Positions 3,919 through 17,558 of a DNA stretch of 64,000 nt are shown piece after piece. Under the pieces are notes generated by a model that was given only the letters and a program-made list of their open reading frames with translations, was not told the origin of the DNA and did no database searches. Made by a program: the position numbers and the translations under genes. Position 1 is the first letter of the stretch, and every line of letters begins with the position of its first letter. This stretch comes from Candidatus Woesearchaeota archaeon (lineage in GTDB: Archaea > Nanobdellota > Nanobdellia > Pacearchaeales > GW2011-AR1), in NCBI GenBank assembly GCA_964437555.1, contig CAYTHI010000001.1, positions 35,149 through 99,148 of the forward strand, in the 5' to 3' direction.

Positions 3919-3988
3919 AGTGCAACCTATATAACTTTTTATAGTAAACAGACTAAAAATTTATTAACTCAATTGGCTATTCTATACC

Positions 3989-4399
3989 ATGTCTTATGTC
4001 GCTCAACTTTGTCAAGAACGAGGATATCGCCCAGCGCATGATCTTAACCACGTAATGCCAAAAGAAAGAATTAATCGTGTTGCTAAGGGTATTATGCTGC
4101 CCGATTTGAATTCATTCGCAAGAGTTTTTATGCGTGAAGATTCCTCGGGAGGCATACGCATTGTCTACGATAGCAATCATGGCTTGAAGTTTTTCTATTT
4201 TCAGGATGATGCCGCAATTGCCCAAGCCGATAAGCTTACTCGTCGGAGAACAGATATGAGTTTTGAAGAAGAATTTCCAACACCAAAAGAAAAAAGAAGT
4301 TGGGTTATAGGGTATTTAAATTTAGAAGTACTAGAACCAGTTCATAGGAATGAGCGGGCACTTAGAGAATTACTGGATGAAAAAGTGAGGGCCGCATAA
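3989..4399 (+). CDS. hypothetical protein; locally GC-richer (~45%) than neighbours
   Basis: 136-aa ORF rich in Arg/Ala/Gly, with atypical composition for this genome. A TATA-like 'cctatataac' lies upstream. Confidence 0.45.
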   Translation: MSYVAQLCQERGYRPAHDLNHVMPKERINRVAKGIMLPDLNSFARVFMREDSSGGIRIVYDSNHGLKFFYFQDDAAIAQADKLTRRRTDMSFEEEFPTPKEKRSWVIGYLNLEVLEPVHRNERALRELLDEKVRAA

Positions 4400-4618
4400 A
4401 GTTGCATTCCTTAATCCCTTTGTTCTGAATATGAAAGTTTCAATCAAAGCGTCCCCTTCCTCTTCCCCTCGCCCCGCAATCCCGAGAAAAGAGGCATAGA
4501 AAGATTTATAAGAAAAGGGCAGCTAATTAAAATAGCAGTTTTACTACTGTGAGTATGATCCCCGGTGATCGCAAGGTTGCCGGATGATTTAACTTTTTGA
4601 TAATATTGGAGATTTCTC

Positions 4619-5215
4619 ATGACAGAAGATACCTTAATTTTTGTTGATGACGGTTTCTTTGGCTTGGTTAAAAAAAGTTTTCAGAAAAAAGACGGCAAGC
4701 CAAAAAAATATCTGCAAACTTTCAGAAATATTTGTGAAAAGGAGAATCTTAATATGAAACATCTTTTTATTTATACTGCCCCTCCTTATCAAAGCCCAAA
4801 ACCTACGGAGAAAGAAGGTTTTTTAATGAGTAGATATCAAAGCATGACAAAAATGCTAAGAAAGAAAAAATGGATTACTTTAAGAGAGGGAAGATGCCAA
4901 AAGATAGTTGATAAGCAGGGAAAAGAAAAGTTTTCTCAGAAAGGAATTGATGCATTAATTATCTTGGATATGTATGACATTAGGGAAAATTATCCAAACA
5001 TAAAGAAGATAATATTAATTGCCTCTGATTCTGATTTTGTGCCTGTTATTGAAAGAATGAAAGAAAAAGGTTTTGAGATTATCATTTATACTTATTTTGA
5101 TAGAAAAAGGCACTCTCAATTTTCAACATCTAATCATCTCTTGAAAGTTGCTTCAAGATGGGTAAAATTAAATGAGTCTCATTTTGAAGACGCAAAATTA
5201 ACAGAAATTTTATAG
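4619..5215 (+). CDS. NYN-domain (LabA-like, PIN-like) putative ribonuclease
   Basis: 'IFVDDGFF', 'IILDMYD' and '[17 protein letters not shown]' match NYN/LabA acidic motifs. Confidence 0.6.
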
Positions 5216-7744
5216 CGCGATTTTCGCCTCACCGCTAACGCCTTCAGGCACCGGCACTTTCACAGAAGCGGCAACTCTATCTCCTTCTTTCAAACGCACG
5301 ACGTGCACGCCCTGCGTGGCTCGTCCCATTACACGCAAATCTTTCATATTAACACGCAAAACCATTCCTTTTGTTGTTGTCACAATAACAGAATCTTTGT
5401 CATTAACTGAAAGAGAGGCAACAACTTTTCCTGTCTTGTCAGAAACACTCAAATTAATAACGCCCTTAGCTCCACGGGCTGTCTTCCTGTATTCTTCCAA
5501 TGATGAGCGCTTACCAAATCCTTTTTCAGTAATTGTTAATATTGTTGTTTTTCCGTCCTTTGGCATGCTTTCCATTGAAACAACTTCGTCATTCTTTCCT
5601 AATTCAGCTCCTTTAACTCCGTAGCTTGCTCGTCCCATAGACCTTACTTCATCTGTATTAAATCGTATTGCCTGTCCTTTAGCAGTGCATAACATTATTT
5701 CCTGTGCATCTTCAACTCTTCTGACATCAATTACAATATCGCTCCCATCAACAGGAAGATTAATTATTCTCACTCCTGTATTTCTTGGATTTGAAACATC
5801 TTTCAAAGGCAGTTTTTTTACAACTCCAAGTTTAGTCGCGAACATCAAATATCCTTCATTGAAATCTCGCAGAGCCATTACATTTGCTATGTTCTCATCT
5901 CTTAAGCTAAGAAGATTAACAAGTGCTTTTCCTTTGCTCTGCCTTTCTGAACTAGGAACATCATTTGCCTTAAGCCAGTACAATCTCCCTCGTGTTGTGA
6001 AAAACAATAAATAATCATGGGTTGAGCACGTGAGAATTTTCTTTACAAAGTCTTCTTCTTTCAAGTCAGCTCCTGTAACTCCAGAGCCCCCTCTTCTTTG
6101 CTCTTTGTAAGCAGAAACATCCATTCTCTTTATGTATCCTGTTTCTGTTAACAACACGACAACATCTTTCTTCTCAATCAAATCTTTTTCAGAAATCTCT
6201 GCAACTCTCTTCAAAACAGTTGTTCTTCTTTCATCCCCATACTGCCTCTTAATCTCCTGCACTTCTTTCTTTATTACAGAAAGTATTTCCTGCTCGCTTG
6301 ATAATATTTTTTTCAATTCGAGAATTGTATCTTTAAGCTCTTTTTCTTCATCTTTTAGCTTATCGCCTTCCAATCTTGTAAGCTGTGATAATCTCATCTC
6401 CAATATTGCTTTCACTTGCCTTGCCGTAAAATTAAACTTTTTAACTAAAGATTCAGAAGCTTCACTGGGACTGGCAGACTTCCTTATTATAGCAACAACA
6501 TTATCTATATCTTTTAATGCGATTAATAATCCGAGAACAATTTCTAATCTTTCTTCAGCTTTCTTAAGCTCAAACTGGCTTCTTTTTCTTACAACCCCTG
6601 CTCTATAACTGACATATTCTGAAACATACTCTTTCAAATTCAAAACTTTCGGCTTTCCCTTGACAAGCGCAAGAATATTAGCATCAAAAGAAGTCTGAAC
6701 ATTAGTTAACTGATACAATTTATTTAAAGTAAATTTGGGGTCAACTTCTTTCTTAAGCTCAATAACAACTCTTACCTGCCCCTTGGCAGACTCGTCTCTT
6801 AAATCAGAAACATCAGGCAGTTTTTTCTCTGTTGCTAATCTGGCTATGTCTTTAACAAGTTCTGCCTTATTAACCATATAAGGAACTTCTGTAATTATAA
6901 TGTAAGGCCTGCCTTTATGCTCTTCTATCTTTGTCCTTGCCCTCATTATTATTTTTCCCTTTCCTGTTCTGTACATGTCCTGTATGCCGCTGCCGCTTGC
7001 AAATCCGCCTGTCGGGAAATCAGGGCCAGTAACAATTTCCATAAGCTGCTCAATTGTGGTTTCCGGCTTGTTAATGTAAGAAATAATTGCTTCTGCTATT
7101 TCTGTTAAATTATGAGGAGGAATATTTGTTGCCATTCCAACTGCAATTCCTGTTGCTCCGTTCAATAATAGATTAGGAAGTTTAGCAGGCAGTGTCTCTG
7201 GCTCTTCAGTTGAATTATCAAAGTTAGGCCTCATCTTTACTGTTTCTTTTTCAATATCTGCCAATAACTCGCCGGCAATCTTGGCCAGCTTTACTTCTGT
7301 ATACCTCATTGCCGCAGCACTATCCGCATCAATTGAACCAAAATTTCCCTGTCCGTGAATCAATGGATACCTCAAAGAAAATTCCTGAGCCATACGAACA
7401 AGAGAATCATAAACAGCAACATCCCCATGAGGATGATATTTTCCTAAAACTTCTCCGACAACTGTTGCTGATTTTCTCGTCGGCTTGCTGCTATCAAGAC
7501 CTATATTATGCATCGCATACAAAATTCTTCTATGAACAGGCTTTAATCCGTCTTCAGCAGCAGGCAATGCTCTCTGGACAATAACAGACATGGCATAATC
7601 AATGTAAGATTTCTCCATCTCTTCAACAATTTCTTTTCCGCTAACGCCCAGCTCGTTTCCTATCTGATTCTTTGTCCTTCTTTCCTTTTCCTGGCTTTCA
7701 ATTTCTTCTTCTATCTTGTCTTCGTCCTGTGTTCTTGGCGTCAT
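5210..7744 (-). CDS. gyrA: DNA gyrase subunit A
   Basis: '[12 protein letters not shown]...[13 protein letters not shown]', '[10 protein letters not shown]' and 'YHPHGD' are GyrA hallmark motifs. Length is 844 aa. Confidence 0.92.
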
Positions 7745-12212: not shown

Positions 12213-12509
12213 ATGAACATACTATTTGAGGTCGTAGACAAAACAGGCCGAAATCTACGAATGACCGATTACAACTGGCAACATATTGTCAGAAGACATC
12301 CCGAGATAGCTTCTCAAAAAGAAAAGATAATAGAAACTCTCGAAAAACCAGATAAAATTACATATTCTCCAGATGACGAAGAAACTAAGTATTATTACAA
12401 ATACTACAAAAATCTGCCTTCTCCATGGATATTTGTGAGGGTAATAGCAAAATACTTAAACGGCGATGGATTTATAATATCATCACATTTTGTGAGAGCA
12501 ATACAATGA
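12213..12509 (+). CDS. putative toxin of a DUF4258-like family (TA pair with next gene)
   Basis: 98-aa protein. Its stop overlaps the start of the DUF2283-like partner (ATGA). Confidence 0.45.
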   Translation: MNILFEVVDKTGRNLRMTDYNWQHIVRRHPEIASQKEKIIETLEKPDKITYSPDDEETKYYYKYYKNLPSPWIFVRVIAKYLNGDGFIISSHFVRAIQ

Positions 12510-12763
12510 AAAATCAAGTAACATTTGATTTATATTATGATGAATTAGGAGATTTCTTAGAGATATCCTTCGGCCTTCCTCCTGAAACCGAATACACAGA
12601 AGACTTGGAAGAAGGCATTTTTGTAACTAAAGATAGAAAAACAAATGAGGTTAAAAGCATAGGAATAATTAGTTTCAAAAAAAGAGCTAAAGAAGCAATT
12701 TTGAAGAGAGTTCTGGAACGGCTCGGGATGTCTATTCCATTAGAAATAAGTATTTCTAAATAA
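12506..12763 (+). CDS. DUF2283-family putative antitoxin
   Basis: 'VTFDLYYDELGDFLEISFG' resembles the DUF2283 'Y-D-x-E-x-D-x-L-Y-I' pattern. The start is taken at an internal Met coupled to the upstream gene. Confidence 0.5.
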   Translation: MKNQVTFDLYYDELGDFLEISFGLPPETEYTEDLEEGIFVTKDRKTNEVKSIGIISFKKRAKEAILKRVLERLGMSIPLEISISK

Positions 12764-13007: not shown

Positions 13008-13382
13008 ATGTTTGTAGAAAATATGACAAACGATAGAAACTCAGACAGAAGTGCAGAGGAAAGATTACTTTATAGTATGTTTCCAGAAATGAAGCCTTCT
13101 AAAGAAAGAATCCCTTATACTCCAGAACAATTAGAAAAAGCGAGAAGAAAAATAGGGAAAGTTTTGAGTACCTTGACGTATAGAGAAAGAGAAGTTCTTA
13201 AATTGCGTTATGGTTTAGGTGATGGATATGCATACACTTTAGGAGAAGTAGGAAAGACTTTCAACATAACTAGAGAAAGAATTAGACAAGTAGAGGCTAA
13301 AGCAATAAGAAAATTACAAAGTCCAGAAAGACGAGCAATATTAGAAAGTTTACTCGATGAACCTCCAAGTACTTCTCAATAA
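13008..13382 (+). CDS. standalone bacterial-type sigma-70 region 4 (4.1/4.2 HTH) domain protein
   Basis: '[63 protein letters not shown]' is near-colinear with RpoD region 4.2 ('LTxREAKVLRMRFGI...[28 protein letters not shown]...'). Regions 2 and 3 are absent. Confidence 0.7.
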
Positions 13383-13759: not shown

Positions 13760-14125
13760 TTATTTGACAAATTCAACACCTTCAGTATCTGAAAATTCCT
13801 TGTCTCCCGTCAAAAACTTTATCCCAAGCTTCTTTGACATTATATACCCAATGCAATCTGTAATTGAAACTCCTCTGTTCTTCCATTTTAATCTGAAAAG
13901 CATCGCTTCTTCTATCCATTCCGGCTTGACAGAATTAATATAATTAGAATATTTCCTTAAATTTTCCTTAGCCGATTTATCCTTATCCCTATAGAGACAA
14001 TAGCATAATTCAGCAAAAATAAAATTATTGATTATTATCTCTGAATCCAGATATTTCTCATACTCTTTATTGCCTCCGATAATCTCAATTATCGCATAAG
14101 TATCAAAAAGATATTTAGAGGTCAT
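13760..14125 (-). CDS. vapC: PIN-domain toxin VapC
   Basis: PIN acidic residues are in place ('LFDTYAI', 'FAEL', 'ITDCIGY', 'LTGDKEF'). Overlaps the upstream antitoxin gene by 11 nt. Confidence 0.75.
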   Translation of the reverse strand: MTSKYLFDTYAIIEIIGGNKEYEKYLDSEIIINNFIFAELCYCLYRDKDKSAKENLRKYSNYINSVKPEWIEEAMLFRLKWKNRGVSITDCIGYIMSKKLGIKFLTGDKEFSDTEGVEFVK

Positions 14126-14336
14126 AAAGTTCCTTGTCAGATTCTTTCATTAGTTTTTTTGCAGATTTAGAGAATTTGTGGGAGCCAAAAGTCTCGCGGA
14201 GCACATTTCCTTTCTTAACAAGAATTGCATCTATCTCTTCGCCTTCTTTCATTCCCTTATCTCTCAAAACTTCATGGGGAATAATTATTCCGTAAGAATT
14301 TCCCCATTTCCTTATCTTTGTCGTAAGTTCTGTCAT
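14115..14336 (-). CDS. vapB: AbrB/SpoVT-MazE-type antitoxin (VapB-like)
   Basis: 'KIRKWGNSYGIIIPHEVL' swapped-hairpin AbrB motif. Confidence 0.7.
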   Translation of the reverse strand: MTELTTKIRKWGNSYGIIIPHEVLRDKGMKEGEEIDAILVKKGNVLRETFGSHKFSKSAKKLMKESDKELYDL

Positions 14337-14361
14337 GTATATACCGTATATACGAAGCTAT

Positions 14362-14598
14362 TTAAAACTTTCTCTTATTTGCTTTCAAAAGACCAAGCTT
14401 CCTTAAATAATCCCGCGCTTTCTCATTAAAATCCCCGCCGTCTCCGAACTTCTTTCTGAAAATCTGCCTGCTCGCAATAATCTGGCTGTCAATCAGCATC
14501 TTATGCTGCCTGAAAAATTTATTATTTTCTTTAAGAGAATTAGCATAAAATTCAACATAGTCGCTGTCATTAATCGGTTTTTTTATGCTTTTTTTCAT
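14362..14598 (-). CDS. small hypothetical protein (78 aa), overlaps the 3' end of the NTase gene
   Basis: Basic protein with 29-nt overlap; last gene of a four-gene minus-strand operon. Confidence 0.35.
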   Translation of the reverse strand: MKKSIKKPINDSDYVEFYANSLKENNKFFRQHKMLIDSQIIASRQIFRKKFGDGGDFNEKARDYLRKLGLLKANKRKF

Positions 14599-15190
14599 TT
14601 TTTACCTCACTAAATATAACCTCGCCGGATTGTTTAAATCTTTCCTCGCTCAAAATAGCTGAAAAGAAATTCCTTAAATGCCTCGCATCCTCCATATCTT
14701 TTCTGCCCGCGAGAACAATTTCTTTATATAAAATCTCAAATTCCAGCATAGGTATCTTAAATTCAAAATCGCCCACTCTGATTTTCTGAAAATGCTCAAA
14801 TTCATACTTCTTGGCTCTCTTGCTTTCATTAAATGGCACAAGTTCTATATTAGGAAAAAGCTCCTTATTTCTGGCAAATCTTAAGCTGGTCATCTGCTCT
14901 AAATAAGAATAGGCGTCATTAAAATCTTCTCCCTGATAACACCAAAATCCTGCCTTCTGCAAATCGCCGAATAAATCTCCAAATTTTTCTTTCTGTATTG
15001 AAGGAAATAAGATATCCACATCTTCAGTTGCTCTTGTTCTCCCTGTTGATATGCTGACGTATCCGCTTACAACAAGATAGTCGCTGTGCTTCTTTAAAAC
15101 TTCAAGAAAATCCTTCGCAAATAAATCGAGCTCGTTTAGGTCTCTTTCAATAATAATGACACCGTTAATTATTTTGTACCCTTTTTCCAT
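14570..15190 (-). CDS. nucleotidyltransferase-fold protein (pol-beta/MNT superfamily; possible AbiEii-like toxin)
   Basis: 'VVSGYVSISTGRTRATEDVDILF' matches the hG[GS]x9-13DxD NTase motif. Confidence 0.55.
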   Translation of the reverse strand: MEKGYKIINGVIIIERDLNELDLFAKDFLEVLKKHSDYLVVSGYVSISTGRTRATEDVDILFPSIQKEKFGDLFGDLQKAGFWCYQGEDFNDAYSYLEQMTSLRFARNKELFPNIELVPFNESKRAKKYEFEHFQKIRVGDFEFKIPMLEFEILYKEIVLAGRKDMEDARHLRNFFSAILSEERFKQSGEVIFSEVKNEKKHKKTD

Positions 15191-15271
15191 AAAATAATAT
15201 AATCAGGTAATATAAAAAGTTTTATCTCCATCCCGCATCAACGTCATCCGTTTTTTCCCTAAGAATTATAC

Positions 15272-15853
15272 CTATTTCAAAGCATTATTTACTTTCTTCT
15301 TAAATTTCTCCGGGTATCTTTTCAAATATTCTTTAAGCTTCTTTTTATCAATTTTTTCCCTGAAAGTATCAATAACTTCCCTGTCCAAAGGCTGCCTGAA
15401 ATAAATCATGTCAATAAATGTTTTTTCAACATCAGAATAAGGAAAATAGAAGTCCCCGTCTTTGTAGTATTCAAAACCAAAAATATATTTTTTGTCTATT
15501 CTCCTAATAAACACGTTCCTATCAAAAATCTTCCTTATTCCTTTTCTCAGATTTCTCGTTGTAACAACAATAGGGTTTGTTTCCTGCTCCCATAAATTAT
15601 GAAAGCTCATTGCATTTTGCAAACCCAGATAAGAAGGCTTAAAACAAAAAACAATCAAAGAAGGATCGTCATAAATGCTATAAAAACCCTTAGTTATTTT
15701 TCTAATTTCGCCTTTCTTCAGTAAATTATTAATAAGCAAGTAAATGTAATCTTTATTCTTTTTTTTAATAAATTTCTTTAACGATTGAATATCAACAACA
15801 GGGCTTTTTTTAAAAAATCTCCTGATATCATTAATATACTTTATTTTACCCAT
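15272..15853 (-). CDS. AbiEi-like type IV TA antitoxin / transcriptional regulator
   Basis: N-terminal wHTH 'LLKKGEIRKITKGFYSI' and C-terminal 'SYLGLQNAMSFHNL...NPIVVTT' resemble the AbiEi/COG5340 architecture. Confidence 0.55.
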   Translation of the reverse strand: MGKIKYINDIRRFFKKSPVVDIQSLKKFIKKKNKDYIYLLINNLLKKGEIRKITKGFYSIYDDPSLIVFCFKPSYLGLQNAMSFHNLWEQETNPIVVTTRNLRKGIRKIFDRNVFIRRIDKKYIFGFEYYKDGDFYFPYSDVEKTFIDMIYFRQPLDREVIDTFREKIDKKKLKEYLKRYPEKFKKKVNNALK

Positions 15854-16491
15854 CTTTTTATCCCCATTAAAAGCTCATTTGAGTTAGGAACAGCTCCAAT
15901 AATAATTATGCTTGATAAATTTGCTTCGTCTTTTGGCTTTTCATAATTTCTGATTAATTTATTTAAAGAAGCTTCAACTAATTTTCTGTTTTCCACATAG
16001 TTAAGCAAAAAATAAATATCATATAAATCTCTTATCTTTTTCCTTTTAAGATATGTTTCAACTTTTTCTAATACCAAGTCTTCTGGGCTTAAAGTATACA
16101 CGTTAATAAAAAAGCTTTCAGAAGTTTCATATTTTTTTGAGAAAGGTTTTTTGCTTTGAAAAGTTGCCTCAAATTTTGTTGCAATATTGTTAAAGTCTAA
16201 TTCAGAATAAATTGAATTTTCCTTTATTCTTTTTTTTATTATTTTAAATCCTTTTGCTTCCAGTGACTTAAAAAATTCTTCAATTTTATTCAAATCTCTG
16301 TTTATATAAACGTCAACATCTTCTGAAAACCTGTTTCCATTATAGCACCTCCATATGCCGGTTCCGCCGTGAATTATAGCATTAGGAAAGAACTTATAGA
16401 GTTCTCCGACAATTATATCCTGGGCATAAGCTATTTCTCTCTCTGATTTCTTTTTCAATTTTAAACTTAGAGGGATATTAACCATTTTCAA
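15841..16491 (-). CDS. AbiEii/DUF1814-like nucleotidyltransferase toxin
   Basis: 'IIHGGTGIWRCYNGNRFSEDVDVYI' matches the GGT...R.SeDiD NTase motif. Overlaps the AbiEi start by 13 nt. Confidence 0.6.
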   Translation of the reverse strand: MKMVNIPLSLKLKKKSEREIAYAQDIIVGELYKFFPNAIIHGGTGIWRCYNGNRFSEDVDVYINRDLNKIEEFFKSLEAKGFKIIKKRIKENSIYSELDFNNIATKFEATFQSKKPFSKKYETSESFFINVYTLSPEDLVLEKVETYLKRKKIRDLYDIYFLLNYVENRKLVEASLNKLIRNYEKPKDEANLSSIIIIGAVPNSNELLMGIKRWVK

Positions 16492-16571
16492 TAATCTACC
16501 AAAGTTATATATATCTATAAGTTGGGTAACTTATAAATCTTTCGCCCTAAGAGGATTAAGGACATTAAATC

Positions 16572-17558
16572 TCATCTCCAAGTCACAAGAACGTCATCCG
16601 TCCTCTCTCTCGGCTTAATATCCACTTTATATGCCTTCATCTTAATCCCCGCATTATACATTATCTCGCCAGTAAATGCAATCATTGCTGCATTATCCAA
16701 AAGGAATTCTTTAGCAGGACAAAAGCACTTTGCTCCTCTTTCCTCGCACATTATCCTGCACATTTCCTGCAATCTTGCGTTGCAAGCAACCCCTCCGCCT
16801 AAAACCAATTCGCACTTTCCTGTGTGCGCCAATGCCCGTTCAGCAGCTTCAACAAGCATTGCAAAAGCTGTTTCCTGAATTGAAAAAGACAAATCCTCAA
16901 TCCTTTTGCCTTTATCATACAATTGCTTTGTCTTTGTAAGCATGCCTGAAAAACTTACGTCCATGCCTTTTATTGAATACGGCAGTTCAATATAACGATT
17001 AGATTGCTTTGCTTTCTGTTCAATAACAAGCCCGCCTGGAAAAGGAATTCCGCAATGCCTTGCAAAAGTATCAATAAAATTTCCTATTCCTAAATCCAAG
17101 GTTTCTCCGAAAACCCGGTATTTGCCTGCGGCAAAAGCAATTATCTGCGTGTTTGCGCCGGAAGCATAAAGCAAAACAGGATCTTTGGCGCCCTCGTGTT
17201 GTCCGATTTCTAAATGCGCAATGCAGTGATTAACAGGTATTAGCGGAATCTTTAATTCTTCTGCTTTCTTCTTCGCAAATCTTAATCCTTCCAATAAACA
17301 TGGAGCTAATCCGGGCGCATTTGAAATTGCAATTGCATCAATATCTTTCTCGCTAACTTCTGCCTTTTCTAATGCTTCTTCATAGATAATTTCTGCGACA
17401 TCGCGATGATGCTTAGCAGAATCCATTGGGATAATTCCTCCCTTCAAAGGTTTATACATATCCCTTACATTTGCAAGAATCTTTCCCTTATTCACAATTC
17501 CAACTCCGAATGTGTGAGCAGTGCATTCTATGCCGAGTATCATTAAATAAAAAGACAA
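16572..17558 (-). CDS. kae1: tRNA N6-adenosine threonylcarbamoyltransferase Kae1
   Basis: 'ILGIECTAHTFGVGIV', 'HCIAHLE' and 'GGGVACNARL' are Kae1/TsaD motifs. Confidence 0.9.
   Translation of the reverse strand: MSFYLMILGIECTAHTFGVGIVNKGKILANVRDMYKPLKGGIIPMDSAKHHRDVAEIIYEEALEKAEVSEKDIDAIAISNAPGLAPCLLEGLRFAKKKAEELKIPLIPVNHCIAHLEIGQHEGAKDPVLLYASGANTQIIAFAAGKYRVFGETLDLGIGNFIDTFARHCGIPFPGGLVIEQKAKQSNRYIELPYSIKGMDVSFSGMLTKTKQLYDKGKRIEDLSFSIQETAFAMLVEAAERALAHTGKCELVLGGGVACNARLQEMCRIMCEERGAKCFCPAKEFLLDNAAMIAFTGEIMYNAGIKMKAYKVDIKPRERTDDVLVTWR

Follow-up and report, generated by a model that had tools for sequence, protein, structure and literature searches.

Two independent enzyme-first gene pairs at the Kae1 locus of a DPANN archaeon: an AbiE cassette probably inserted beside a resident MenT-like nucleotidyltransferase and its small basic partner

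Here we present an analysis of four adjacent open reading frames (ORFs), located at positions 14362-16491 of a 64,000-nt stretch of contig CAYTHI010000001.1 from a Candidatus Woesearchaeota archaeon; this whole stretch is referred to as the window. All four are on the minus strand. In the direction of transcription they are abiEii (15841-16491; 216 aa if read from the TTG at 16491), encoding a nucleotidyltransferase (NTase) toxin of the DUF1814 type; abiEi (15272-15853; 193 aa), encoding a winged helix-turn-helix (wHTH) antitoxin and regulator; ORF C (14570-15190; 206 aa), encoding an acidic NTase of an unnamed family with a MenT1/DUF1814-like fold; and ORF D (14362-14598; 78 aa), encoding the basic, three-helix, DUF8150-related partner of ORF C. 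The abiEii and abiEi genes overlap by 13 nt (15841-15853), ORF C and ORF D overlap by 29 nt (14570-14598), and 81 nt (15191-15271) separate abiEi from ORF C. A preliminary description of this DNA had given the same layout, and the motifs that it quoted, GGT...RFSEDVDV and SGYVSISTGRTRATEDVDIL, are present; it had read the four genes as one operon encoding a rearranged or expanded abortive-infection system. We conclude with reasonable confidence that the region is made up of two independent, separately promoted gene pairs, each with the enzyme gene first, and that they were joined by insertion of an AbiE pair beside a resident C-D pair.

All four ORFs are real genes and not chance ORFs, because the first two products match AbiEii and AbiEi profiles and the last two have 555 and 573 homologues, respectively. 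The surroundings, in a window with a GC content of ~30-35%, identify a DPANN-type archaeon of the phylum Nanoarchaeota. All homologues that carry an organism name come from metagenome-assembled genomes of Woesearchaeota, Pacearchaeota or Nanoarchaeota, save for a few otherwise-labelled bins that are probably mis-assigned.

The abiEii product matches the Pfam AbiEii family (PF08843) at E 4.5e-19 (69.8 bits; cut-off 22.5) and PADLOC AbiEii at E 3.7e-19, and 22 PADLOC AbiEii models match it at E <0.01. Four motifs have been defined for DUF1814 proteins: hG[G/S] (I), R...DhD (II), K-x6-R (III) and +DxxD (IV) (Dy et al., PMC3985639). The window protein carries each of them, as H41-G42-G43, R54-F-S56-E-D58-V-D60, K143VETYLKR150 and R154DLYD158, and all are invariant in three orthologues of 46-53% identity (alignment A7), which bears out the earlier view of this ORF as a DUF1814-like NTase. 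Because the N-termini of the orthologues (M..IPL) and the spacing to the promoter are conserved, the ATG at 16485, which gives 214 aa, is more likely to be the true start than the TTG at 16491. The abiEi product, correctly described as AbiEi-like, matches PADLOC AbiEi at E 4.8e-20 over residues 16-180; its matches to Pfam AbiEi_4 (0.0079) and NCBIfam TAA_AbiEi (0.0068) cover the N-terminal wHTH alone and fall under the cut-offs. Judged by these profiles and motifs, the two genes are a bona fide AbiE pair and a member of a known family.

The canonical AbiE order places the antitoxin gene upstream, whereas in the window abiEii precedes abiEi, which had suggested a rearrangement. A metagenome scan with an AbiEii alignment yielded 472 confirmed relatives, and the best 80 of these (48-82% identity) were analysed. 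AbiEi was found directly downstream of AbiEii on the same strand in 75, in most of which the two genes overlap as they do in the window; in the other five the contig ends there, leaving 75 informative relatives, and AbiEi is upstream in none of them. For this archaeal (DPANN-type) AbiE subfamily, toxin before antitoxin is a fixed order rather than a rearrangement, and represents a consistent variant, not a defining catalytic feature. A literature search returned no description of such an order. In the flanks available for the 80 AbiE loci, neither ORF C nor ORF D is present, and no member of the AbiEii subfamily was found in the viral contigs of IMG/VR.

DPANN archaea are enriched in AbiE (PMC12988326), and the systems with which the window pair can be compared are those of Lactococcus lactis and Streptococcus agalactiae, in which a DUF1814/COG2253 NTase toxin is combined with a COG5340 wHTH antitoxin (PMC3985639; bioRxiv 10.64898/2026.01.19.700257). 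Like these, the window pair has a toxin that carries motifs I-IV and passes the AbiEii cut-off, a partner that matches AbiEi profiles, overlapping genes in a bicistronic arrangement, and an inverted repeat in the promoter. Unlike these, it has the toxin-then-antitoxin order seen in 75/75 of its subfamily, an archaeal promoter whose TATA box is separated from the start codon by the palindrome, and short proteins (214 and 193 aa), with the AbiEi under the cut-offs of Pfam AbiEi_4 and of NCBIfam.

The extent of the AbiE unit could be read from DNA comparisons. In blastn searches, homology to more than 35 AbiE cassettes in other contexts starts at 16536-16546, save for three truncated loci, and the homology to cassettes in unrelated contexts spans ~16545 to ~15291, taking in the promoter, abiEii and abiEi. 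At the edge of this common DNA is the AbiE promoter 'gaaagATTTATAA' (16531-16545, minus), which resembles a B recognition element and TATA box. Between this TATA box and the abiEii start is an imperfect palindrome, ACCCAACTTATA-N6-TATAACTTTGGT (16498-16527, no strand), with half-sites at 16516-16527 (minus) and 16498-16509 (plus). The upstream regions of AbiE relatives show the same succession of 'gaaagATTTATAA', a palindrome ACCAAACTTATA-N5/6-TATAAGTTTGGT, ~10 nt and the ATG; the palindrome is kept in relatives of unrelated context, and it gives rise to reverse-strand self-matches in blastn. The AbiE pair is a discrete mobile cassette of ~1.25 kb, with its own TATA box and conserved palindrome. 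In bacterial AbiE, AbiEi binds inverted repeats in the promoter and represses its own operon (PMC3985639). By analogy, the palindrome is the predicted AbiEi operator, and an arrangement in which an operator of dimer type comes after the TATA box and covers the expected transcription start would fit autorepression by AbiEi.

Directly upstream of the AbiE pair, also on the minus strand, is the gene for Kae1/TsaD (16572-17558; Pfam TsaD E 1.3e-74), and its 3' end is found twice. The first copy (16572-16625, minus) encodes the C-terminus of Kae1, VDIKPRERTDDVLVTWR, and its stop codon. The second (15222-15271, minus; 15222-15275 over the 54 nt compared), located directly past the abiEi stop, is a relic that reads IGIILREKTDDVDAGWR (...EKTDDVDAGWR) and likewise ends in a stop codon. 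Of 54 nt, 35 are the same in both copies, among them an exact core of 12 nt. A degenerate pattern of the repeat, 30 nt long, is found in the 64 kb just at 16572-16601 and 15222-15251, where shuffles expect 0, and residues 310-328 of Kae1 also match 15225-15281 in tblastn. The repeat was spotted by eye and confirmed by the pattern search and alignment A4; a generic repeat finder did not list it.

Two related loci make it possible to interpret this scar. In the closest species representative, L008 (67% identical in ORF C and 64% in Kae1), Kae1 (3975-4970) is followed by ORF C at 5001 with nothing between: 30 nt with a TATA box separate the Kae1 stop from the ORF C start, AbiE is absent, and the real Kae1 3' end stands at the position of the relic in the window. 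A second genome, L001, whose ORF C is 80% identical, has both the AbiE pair and the same Kae1 relic. Because L008 lacks AbiE while L001 shares AbiE and the relic, we take Kae1 followed by C-D as the ancestral arrangement; the AbiE cassette arrived later, in an ancestor that the window genome shares with L001. By this reading the cassette (about 16545-15272) inserted at the 3' end of Kae1, leaving a degenerate ~50-nt copy on the far side. Such a duplication could have been produced by att-like integration and subsequent loss of the rest of the element, or possibly by recombination with foreign DNA carrying a Kae1 3' end.

In contrast to the AbiE loci, in which ORF C and ORF D are never found, the C-D pair itself proved to be obligate. 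A pattern-limited scan returned 93 C-D matches, and in 87 of 87 loci the ORF C homologue was directly followed by an ORF D homologue, as a rule with an overlap or at a distance of no more than ~40 nt (the ORF D of L015 was missed by the tblastn screen and is present in the ORF list). The 78-aa ORF is a real partner gene, as had been proposed. Moreover, the pairwise identities of C and D are correlated across 77 genomes (r = 0.42), a value reached by 0/2000 Mantel permutations; the two proteins co-evolve. The pair is a single copy in each genome (80 loci from 80 different assemblies), and the two genes are intact wherever the locus is complete.

The C-D pair also has a promoter of its own. In the window, the TATA box TTTTTATATTA (15208-15218, minus) is ~18-28 nt upstream of the ORF C ATG, and a TATA box is found ~25-30 nt before this ATG in most of 80 aligned loci, regardless of the upstream gene. 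No conserved palindrome was found in the 80 aligned ORF C upstream regions, and the AbiE operator half-site is absent from 15191-15271, the C-D promoter of the window; on the latter ground we rejected the idea that AbiEi regulates C-D too. As far as these upstream sequences indicate, C-D is autonomous: its promoter is of the leaderless type, and no operator can be recognised there. The claim of a four-gene minus-strand operon holds in that the four genes are co-directional, but not as to a single operon, since each pair has its own conserved archaeal promoter.

There is no conserved synteny around C-D, the commonest neighbour family occurring in just 9 of 81 loci. The immediate neighbours are mostly varied housekeeping genes (L3, TruD, TruB, RsmB, Kae1, DNA ligase, NDK, ThrRS, SAM synthetase and enolase), and a few are genes for minimal nucleotidyltransferases (MNT), restriction-modification systems or nucleases. 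In L077, a tRNA-Ser(tga) gene (4881-4962) ends 38 nt before the ORF C start; tRNA-like 3' ends can be seen by eye at the same position in L073 and L078, where ARAGORN called none. The two closest ORF C homologues, L001 and L008, both have the pair beside Kae1, and this speaks for vertical inheritance of C-D. The ORF C family, like the AbiEii subfamily, has no member in IMG/VR viral contigs. That C-D might be a recently mobile cassette was considered and rejected: the closest homologues are at the Kae1-side location, and no flanking repeats were seen.

These findings bear on the proposal that all four genes constitute a single abortive-infection system, an AbiE that has been expanded or rearranged: AbiEi, encoded between the two toxin-like NTases, would control both of them, and the 78-aa protein would be an extra component. 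The genes are indeed co-directional and tightly spaced, and both NTases have [ST]EDVD and +DxxD motifs. In addition, AbiE pairs of this subfamily are found within ~1 kb of C-D in three arrangements: on the upstream side in the window and in L001, on the downstream side and convergent in L035 (5881-7109), and downstream again but co-directional in L075 (5923-6405). In ~1-Mb genomes this adjacency looks like more than chance. However, AbiE is near C-D in just four loci, L001, L007 (the window's own duplicate), L035 and L075, and the other 83 of the 87 are without it, so that ORF C and ORF D are no additions to an AbiE system. Not one of the 80 AbiE relatives closest to the window pair adjoins C-D, and the AbiE pair is complete as a two-gene unit in 75/75. 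The variation in position and orientation of AbiE relative to C-D is a further point against a single system, as are the separate promoters and the absence of the AbiE half-site at that of C-D. Because C-D is obligate, AbiE loci lack C-D, Kae1 leads directly into ORF C in L008, and the Kae1 repeat brackets the AbiE pair, the two modules are independent, and we regard a single four-gene system as very improbable. The simplest reading of the recurrent adjacency would be an insertion-tolerant spot beside a strong promoter.

The nature of the ORF C protein had to be approached through structure. It has no Pfam, PADLOC or NCBIfam match at E up to 1 and no match by sequence in the Protein Data Bank (PDB). 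Its 555 homologues (clusters at 90% identity) are 59-80% identical to it and ~196-206 aa long, and all are labelled hypothetical; in an exhaustive profile search this core family corresponds to one cluster at 50% identity. A wider superfamily of ~200-aa proteins comprises 490 such clusters at E <=1e-3 and 294 at E <=1e-10. Ten sampled members gave nothing at the Pfam cut-off and faint matches to DUF6036, DUF2204 and AbiEii, and one distant relative matched PF08843 at E 0.032, under the cut-off. Two relatives of 241-251 aa, P0265 and P0291, have ~45-55 aa inserted midway through the NTase domain, after an 'FWC' motif.

The AlphaFold2 model of ORF C (pLDDT 92.4, pTM 0.88) has the MenT-type bilobed fold, consisting of an NTase beta-sheet domain and a C-terminal helical bundle. 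In a Foldseek search of the PDB, four MenT1 chains (8an5/8an4) took the first ranks, at E 8e-6 to 7e-5 and template-modelling (TM) scores of 0.53-0.60; the top match was 8an5_B (E 8.1e-6, TM 0.55/0.60). These were followed by LnuA, phospho-MenT1, a fungal NTase-like antigen (5uvd), MenT3/TglT, ANT(2'')-Ia and TM1012. By pattern matching, ORF C has S42-G43, R53ATED57VD59, K156-x6-R163 and K164DMED168, with a G-to-D spacing of x13 and not x15. In the family alignment (A1), G43, R53, T55, E56, D57, K156, K164, D165 and D168 are invariant, D59 is nearly so, and position 163 is R or K (K156-x6-[R/K]163). With the modelled fold matching MenT1 and the carboxylates intact, ORF C is, by its predicted fold, an NTase, in agreement with its earlier designation as a divergent one. 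MenT1 has its phospho-acceptor, T39, within an S/T-x-D motif (PMC10435456, PMC11375011), and by pattern match T55 of ORF C would sit at the equivalent position. A sub-fragment query of ORF C aimed at the MenT1 catalytic residues (T39/D41/K137/D152) returned noise.

The structural matches leave room for another reading, in which ORF C is a small-molecule NTase of the LnuA/ANT(2'')/TM1012 type, acting on an antibiotic or a metabolite, and ORF D would have an accessory or regulatory function that does not involve RNA. LnuA (4fo1; E 1.9e-4, target TM 0.65), ANT(2'')-Ia and TM1012 are among the top matches; like ORF C, they combine an NTase with a helical domain at a similar size and fold score. 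The four best ranks are nevertheless held by MenT1 chains, and an obligate basic partner together with contexts of tRNA, aminoacyl-tRNA synthetase and RNA-modification genes fits an RNA substrate better. To our knowledge, LnuA, ANT(2'')-Ia and TM1012 have no dedicated small partner gene. By pattern match ORF C also has the +DxxD motif IV, which is described as specific to DUF1814 (PMC3985639). We consider this specific alternative improbable.

The partner, ORF D, belongs to a family whose 573 members (61-84 aa) were collected with a profile built from locus-derived sequences and which parallels the C family; a single-sequence search, limited by its word index, gave 3 matches. Its AlphaFold2 model consists of three helices (11-24, 27-51 and 55-68) with pLDDT 83.7 and pTM 0.48, a combination suggesting that the fold needs a partner. 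The HEPN domain comprises ~120 aa, at least four helices and an Rx4-6H motif. The suggestion that the 78-aa protein might be HEPN-like was not borne out by structure prediction, which gave three helices, and the sequence has neither an Rx4-6H motif nor a HEPN/HepT profile match. A fold search of the PDB gave no match below E 4, MenA1 chains included, and both HEPN and MenA1-like identities were dropped for want of such a match. ORF D is strongly basic (pI 10.15; family median pI 9.9, net charge ~+6), whereas ORF C is acidic (pI 5.7; family median pI 5.7, net charge ~-4).

Searches of Pfam, PADLOC, NCBIfam and PDB sequences with ORF D yielded no usable match; the Pfam copy is apparently without PF26477, since a 52-aa protein labelled DUF8150 was also unmatched there. 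By hhalign, however, the D family matches this 52-aa protein at 91.8% probability (E 7.4e-7) and a further DUF8150-labelled partner at 60% (E 8.7e-5), and the DUF8150-labelled proteins hold the same position, downstream of homologous NTases. These profile alignments point to ORF D being a member of a family related to DUF8150, of which our literature search found no mention.

The relatives in question extend the C-D association to haloarchaea and other lineages. A haloarchaeal ORF C relative has a 76-aa overlapping downstream ORF, labelled PF26477/DUF8150 in L093, and a 3.7-Mb contig with a distant ORF C relative has an uncalled D homologue of ~59 aa; for two more distant relatives the contigs are too short to show a partner. 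At L096:3-3511 (also L097 and L098), a 193-aa NTase and the 52-aa DUF8150 protein are encoded between pheS (PheRS alpha) and pheT (PheRS beta), and reading frames overlap at every pheS/NTase/DUF8150/pheT junction, which suggests that the pair is co-translated with this aminoacyl-tRNA synthetase operon. Two ORF C relatives of 272-276 aa have a D-like C-terminal extension, detected by hhalign at E 1.5e-4 over 59 columns in P0284 and at E 0.019 in P0283, and these are probable natural C-D fusions.

A different arrangement is seen in two haloarchaeal-type loci, L091 (2353-3820) and L092, where a GC-rich ORF C relative with a downstream DUF8150-like ORF is preceded, 70 nt away, by a gene for a 192-aa wHTH protein of the TrmB type that contains a DUF7437 domain. 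The order recalls the canonical one of AbiEi and then NTase, and a Mrr-type nuclease gene and a MazE-like gene are nearby.

For the AbiE pair, a mechanism can be proposed by analogy with studied AbiE and MenT systems (PMC3985639; PMC10435456; PMC11375011; bioRxiv 10.64898/2026.01.19.700257). AbiEii, as a DUF1814 NTase, would block translation by extending tRNA 3' ends. AbiEi would repress the operon at the palindrome, and would probably neutralise AbiEii by binding it and inducing autophosphorylation at S56.

For the second pair, the fold, the motifs, the obligate and co-evolving partner, the complementary charges and the fusions together suggest that C and D form a complex. In it, C would add nucleotides to the 3' end of an RNA, most likely a tRNA, and D would provide an RNA-binding or regulatory surface. 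We read module 2 as a vertically inherited, two-subunit MenT-like NTase. As to its role, we lean, without great assurance, toward a domesticated or housekeeping function; a classical toxin-antitoxin role keeps a substantial though lesser share, and a small-molecule NTase is unlikely. The lean rests on conservation like that of Kae1, the single and always intact copy, the lack of an operator, the combination of acidic enzyme and basic partner, the housekeeping neighbours and the embedding between pheS and pheT. In its most specific form, this reading makes C-D a MenT-like RNA 3'-end NTase holoenzyme, composed of an acidic catalytic subunit and a basic, RNA-binding DUF8150 subunit, which would have been domesticated in Nanoarchaeota for housekeeping tRNA metabolism (3'-end repair, tagging or quality control); we put it forward tentatively.

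The model for a toxin-antitoxin role is MenAT1 (Rv0078B-Rv0078A) of Mycobacterium tuberculosis, which consists of the tRNA NTase toxin MenT1 and the 68-aa antitoxin MenA1 (PMC10435456, PMC11375011). By this account C-D would be a chromosomal pair of the same type, in which C is a growth-arresting tRNA NTase toxin and D is an antitoxin that blocks the active site or induces autophosphorylation at T55, in the service of defence or addiction. The likeness is considerable: MenT1 is the best structural match of ORF C, with 196 aa in the PDB chain against 206; ORF C has S/T-x-D, K and +DxxD motifs of the DUF1814 type by pattern match, and an invariant Thr at the phospho-acceptor position. Furthermore, the arrangement is bicistronic with a small partner (~65-78 aa) that has no detectable DNA-binding domain and whose length is close to the 68 aa of MenA1 (PMC10435456). 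The lack of conserved synteny would also suit a toxin-antitoxin pair, as would the company of other such modules (AbiE and VapBC in the window; AbiEi, MNT-HEPN and PemK in L001) and the tRNA gene directly upstream in L077.

Unlike MenAT1, however, ORF C has no sequence-level DUF1814 match, and the COG5340, COG4861 or MenA1-like antitoxin expected upstream of a DUF1814/MenT gene is not there; the C-D partner is downstream instead and is a relative of DUF8150; no similarity to MenA1 could be detected in it, and it has no structural match to MenA1 or to any other PDB entry. The pair is highly conserved, with ORF C about as similar between the window and L008 as Kae1 (67% vs 64%), it is present once per genome with both genes intact in complete loci, it is seemingly vertically inherited and absent from viral contigs, and its promoter has no conserved operator. 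The charge pattern is a further objection, since RNA-targeting toxin-antitoxin pairs typically show the opposite of an acidic enzyme with a very basic partner. The mostly housekeeping neighbours, the relative that is embedded in overlapping frames between pheS and pheT, and the probable C-D fusions also speak against a toxin. We regard the MenAT1-type account in this specific form as less likely than not, though a serious possibility.

A precedent for domestication exists in the DPANN MNT-HEPN fusion (cls.004259, NEQ050; Makarova et al. 2019, PMC6393860). Like C-D, this NTase module resembles toxin-antitoxin systems but is unusually conserved and found in housekeeping contexts. Unlike C-D, it combines a minimal NTase with a HEPN partner, and ORF D is without HEPN features. 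In summary, C-D resembles a system of MenT with a small partner and yet fails sequence membership of DUF1814, differing in the partner and in its position, and neither ORF C nor ORF D has a characterised relative.

Several observations weigh against the interpretation given here for the two modules. No integrase is present to account for the ~50-nt Kae1 duplication, and the three arrangements in which AbiE adjoins C-D have already been described. The link of ORF C to DUF1814/MenT consists of the fold (TM 0.55-0.60, ~14% identity) and short motifs alone; hhalign gives ORF C against the AbiEii of the window a probability of 11%, the match of its hidden Markov model to MenT1 has an E of 0.71, and small-molecule NTases of the LnuA and ANT(2'') types score near MenT1 in Foldseek. 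The proposed C-D interaction draws on co-occurrence, correlation and weakly supported fusions. Also, the 93 matches come from a pattern-limited scan, which leaves a patchy, toxin-antitoxin-like distribution of C-D possible.

Downstream of C-D in the window is a VapB-VapC pair on the minus strand, consisting of an AbrB/MazE-type VapB (14115-14336; Pfam MazE_antitoxin 2.7e-6) and a PIN-domain VapC (13760-14125; Pfam PIN 6.2e-10). It is an independent pair outside both NTase modules, and in the locus comparison its relatives are mostly found away from C-D. The 25 nt between the ORF D stop and the vapB ATG (14337-14361, minus) hold two tandem copies of a self-complementary octamer, GTATATAC (14346-14353 and 14337-14344), which may serve as VapB operator and TATA element. 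In L001, the genes after C-D are not VapBC; they encode a pair of MNT and HEPN (HepT-like) proteins and a toxin of the PemK type (1715-2613 and 5228-5769); because L001 differs from the window at this place, the toxin-antitoxin content downstream of C-D appears to turn over fast while C-D stays.

Farther along, at 13008-13382 (plus), a 124-aa protein with Sigma-70 region 4 (PF04545, E 4.4e-17) is encoded amid toxin-antitoxin genes of this otherwise archaeal segment, and may have come from bacteria as a stand-alone HTH regulator. At 12213-12763 (plus) are two overlapping small ORFs, the first of 98 aa with a weak match to PBECR3/PBECR2 nuclease-toxin profiles (E 5e-4) and the second of 112 aa with a weak match to DUF2283 (E 0.007), which are probably a further toxin-antitoxin pair. 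With VapBC and AbiE, these genes would make 12.2-16.5 kb a small zone of toxin-antitoxin accretion between ribosomal-protein genes and Kae1.

The findings from this analysis are instructive first of all for annotation: two NTase genes that flank an AbiEi gene mimic an expanded defence system and are not one. The AbiE pair adds a mobile member, with a consistently variant gene order, to a family already known, and with its conserved archaeal promoter and predicted operator it offers a compact model of how archaea regulate AbiE. Of greater interest is the C-D pair, since a fold and motifs of the toxin type are here combined with vertically inherited behaviour in ~1-Mb genomes. It bears on whether toxin-type tRNA NTases were domesticated in reduced archaea, and may provide a first function for DUF8150. 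If C-D is indeed a domesticated holoenzyme, a 'toxin' fold would have been recruited as a conserved cellular enzyme, and DUF8150 would gain a function.

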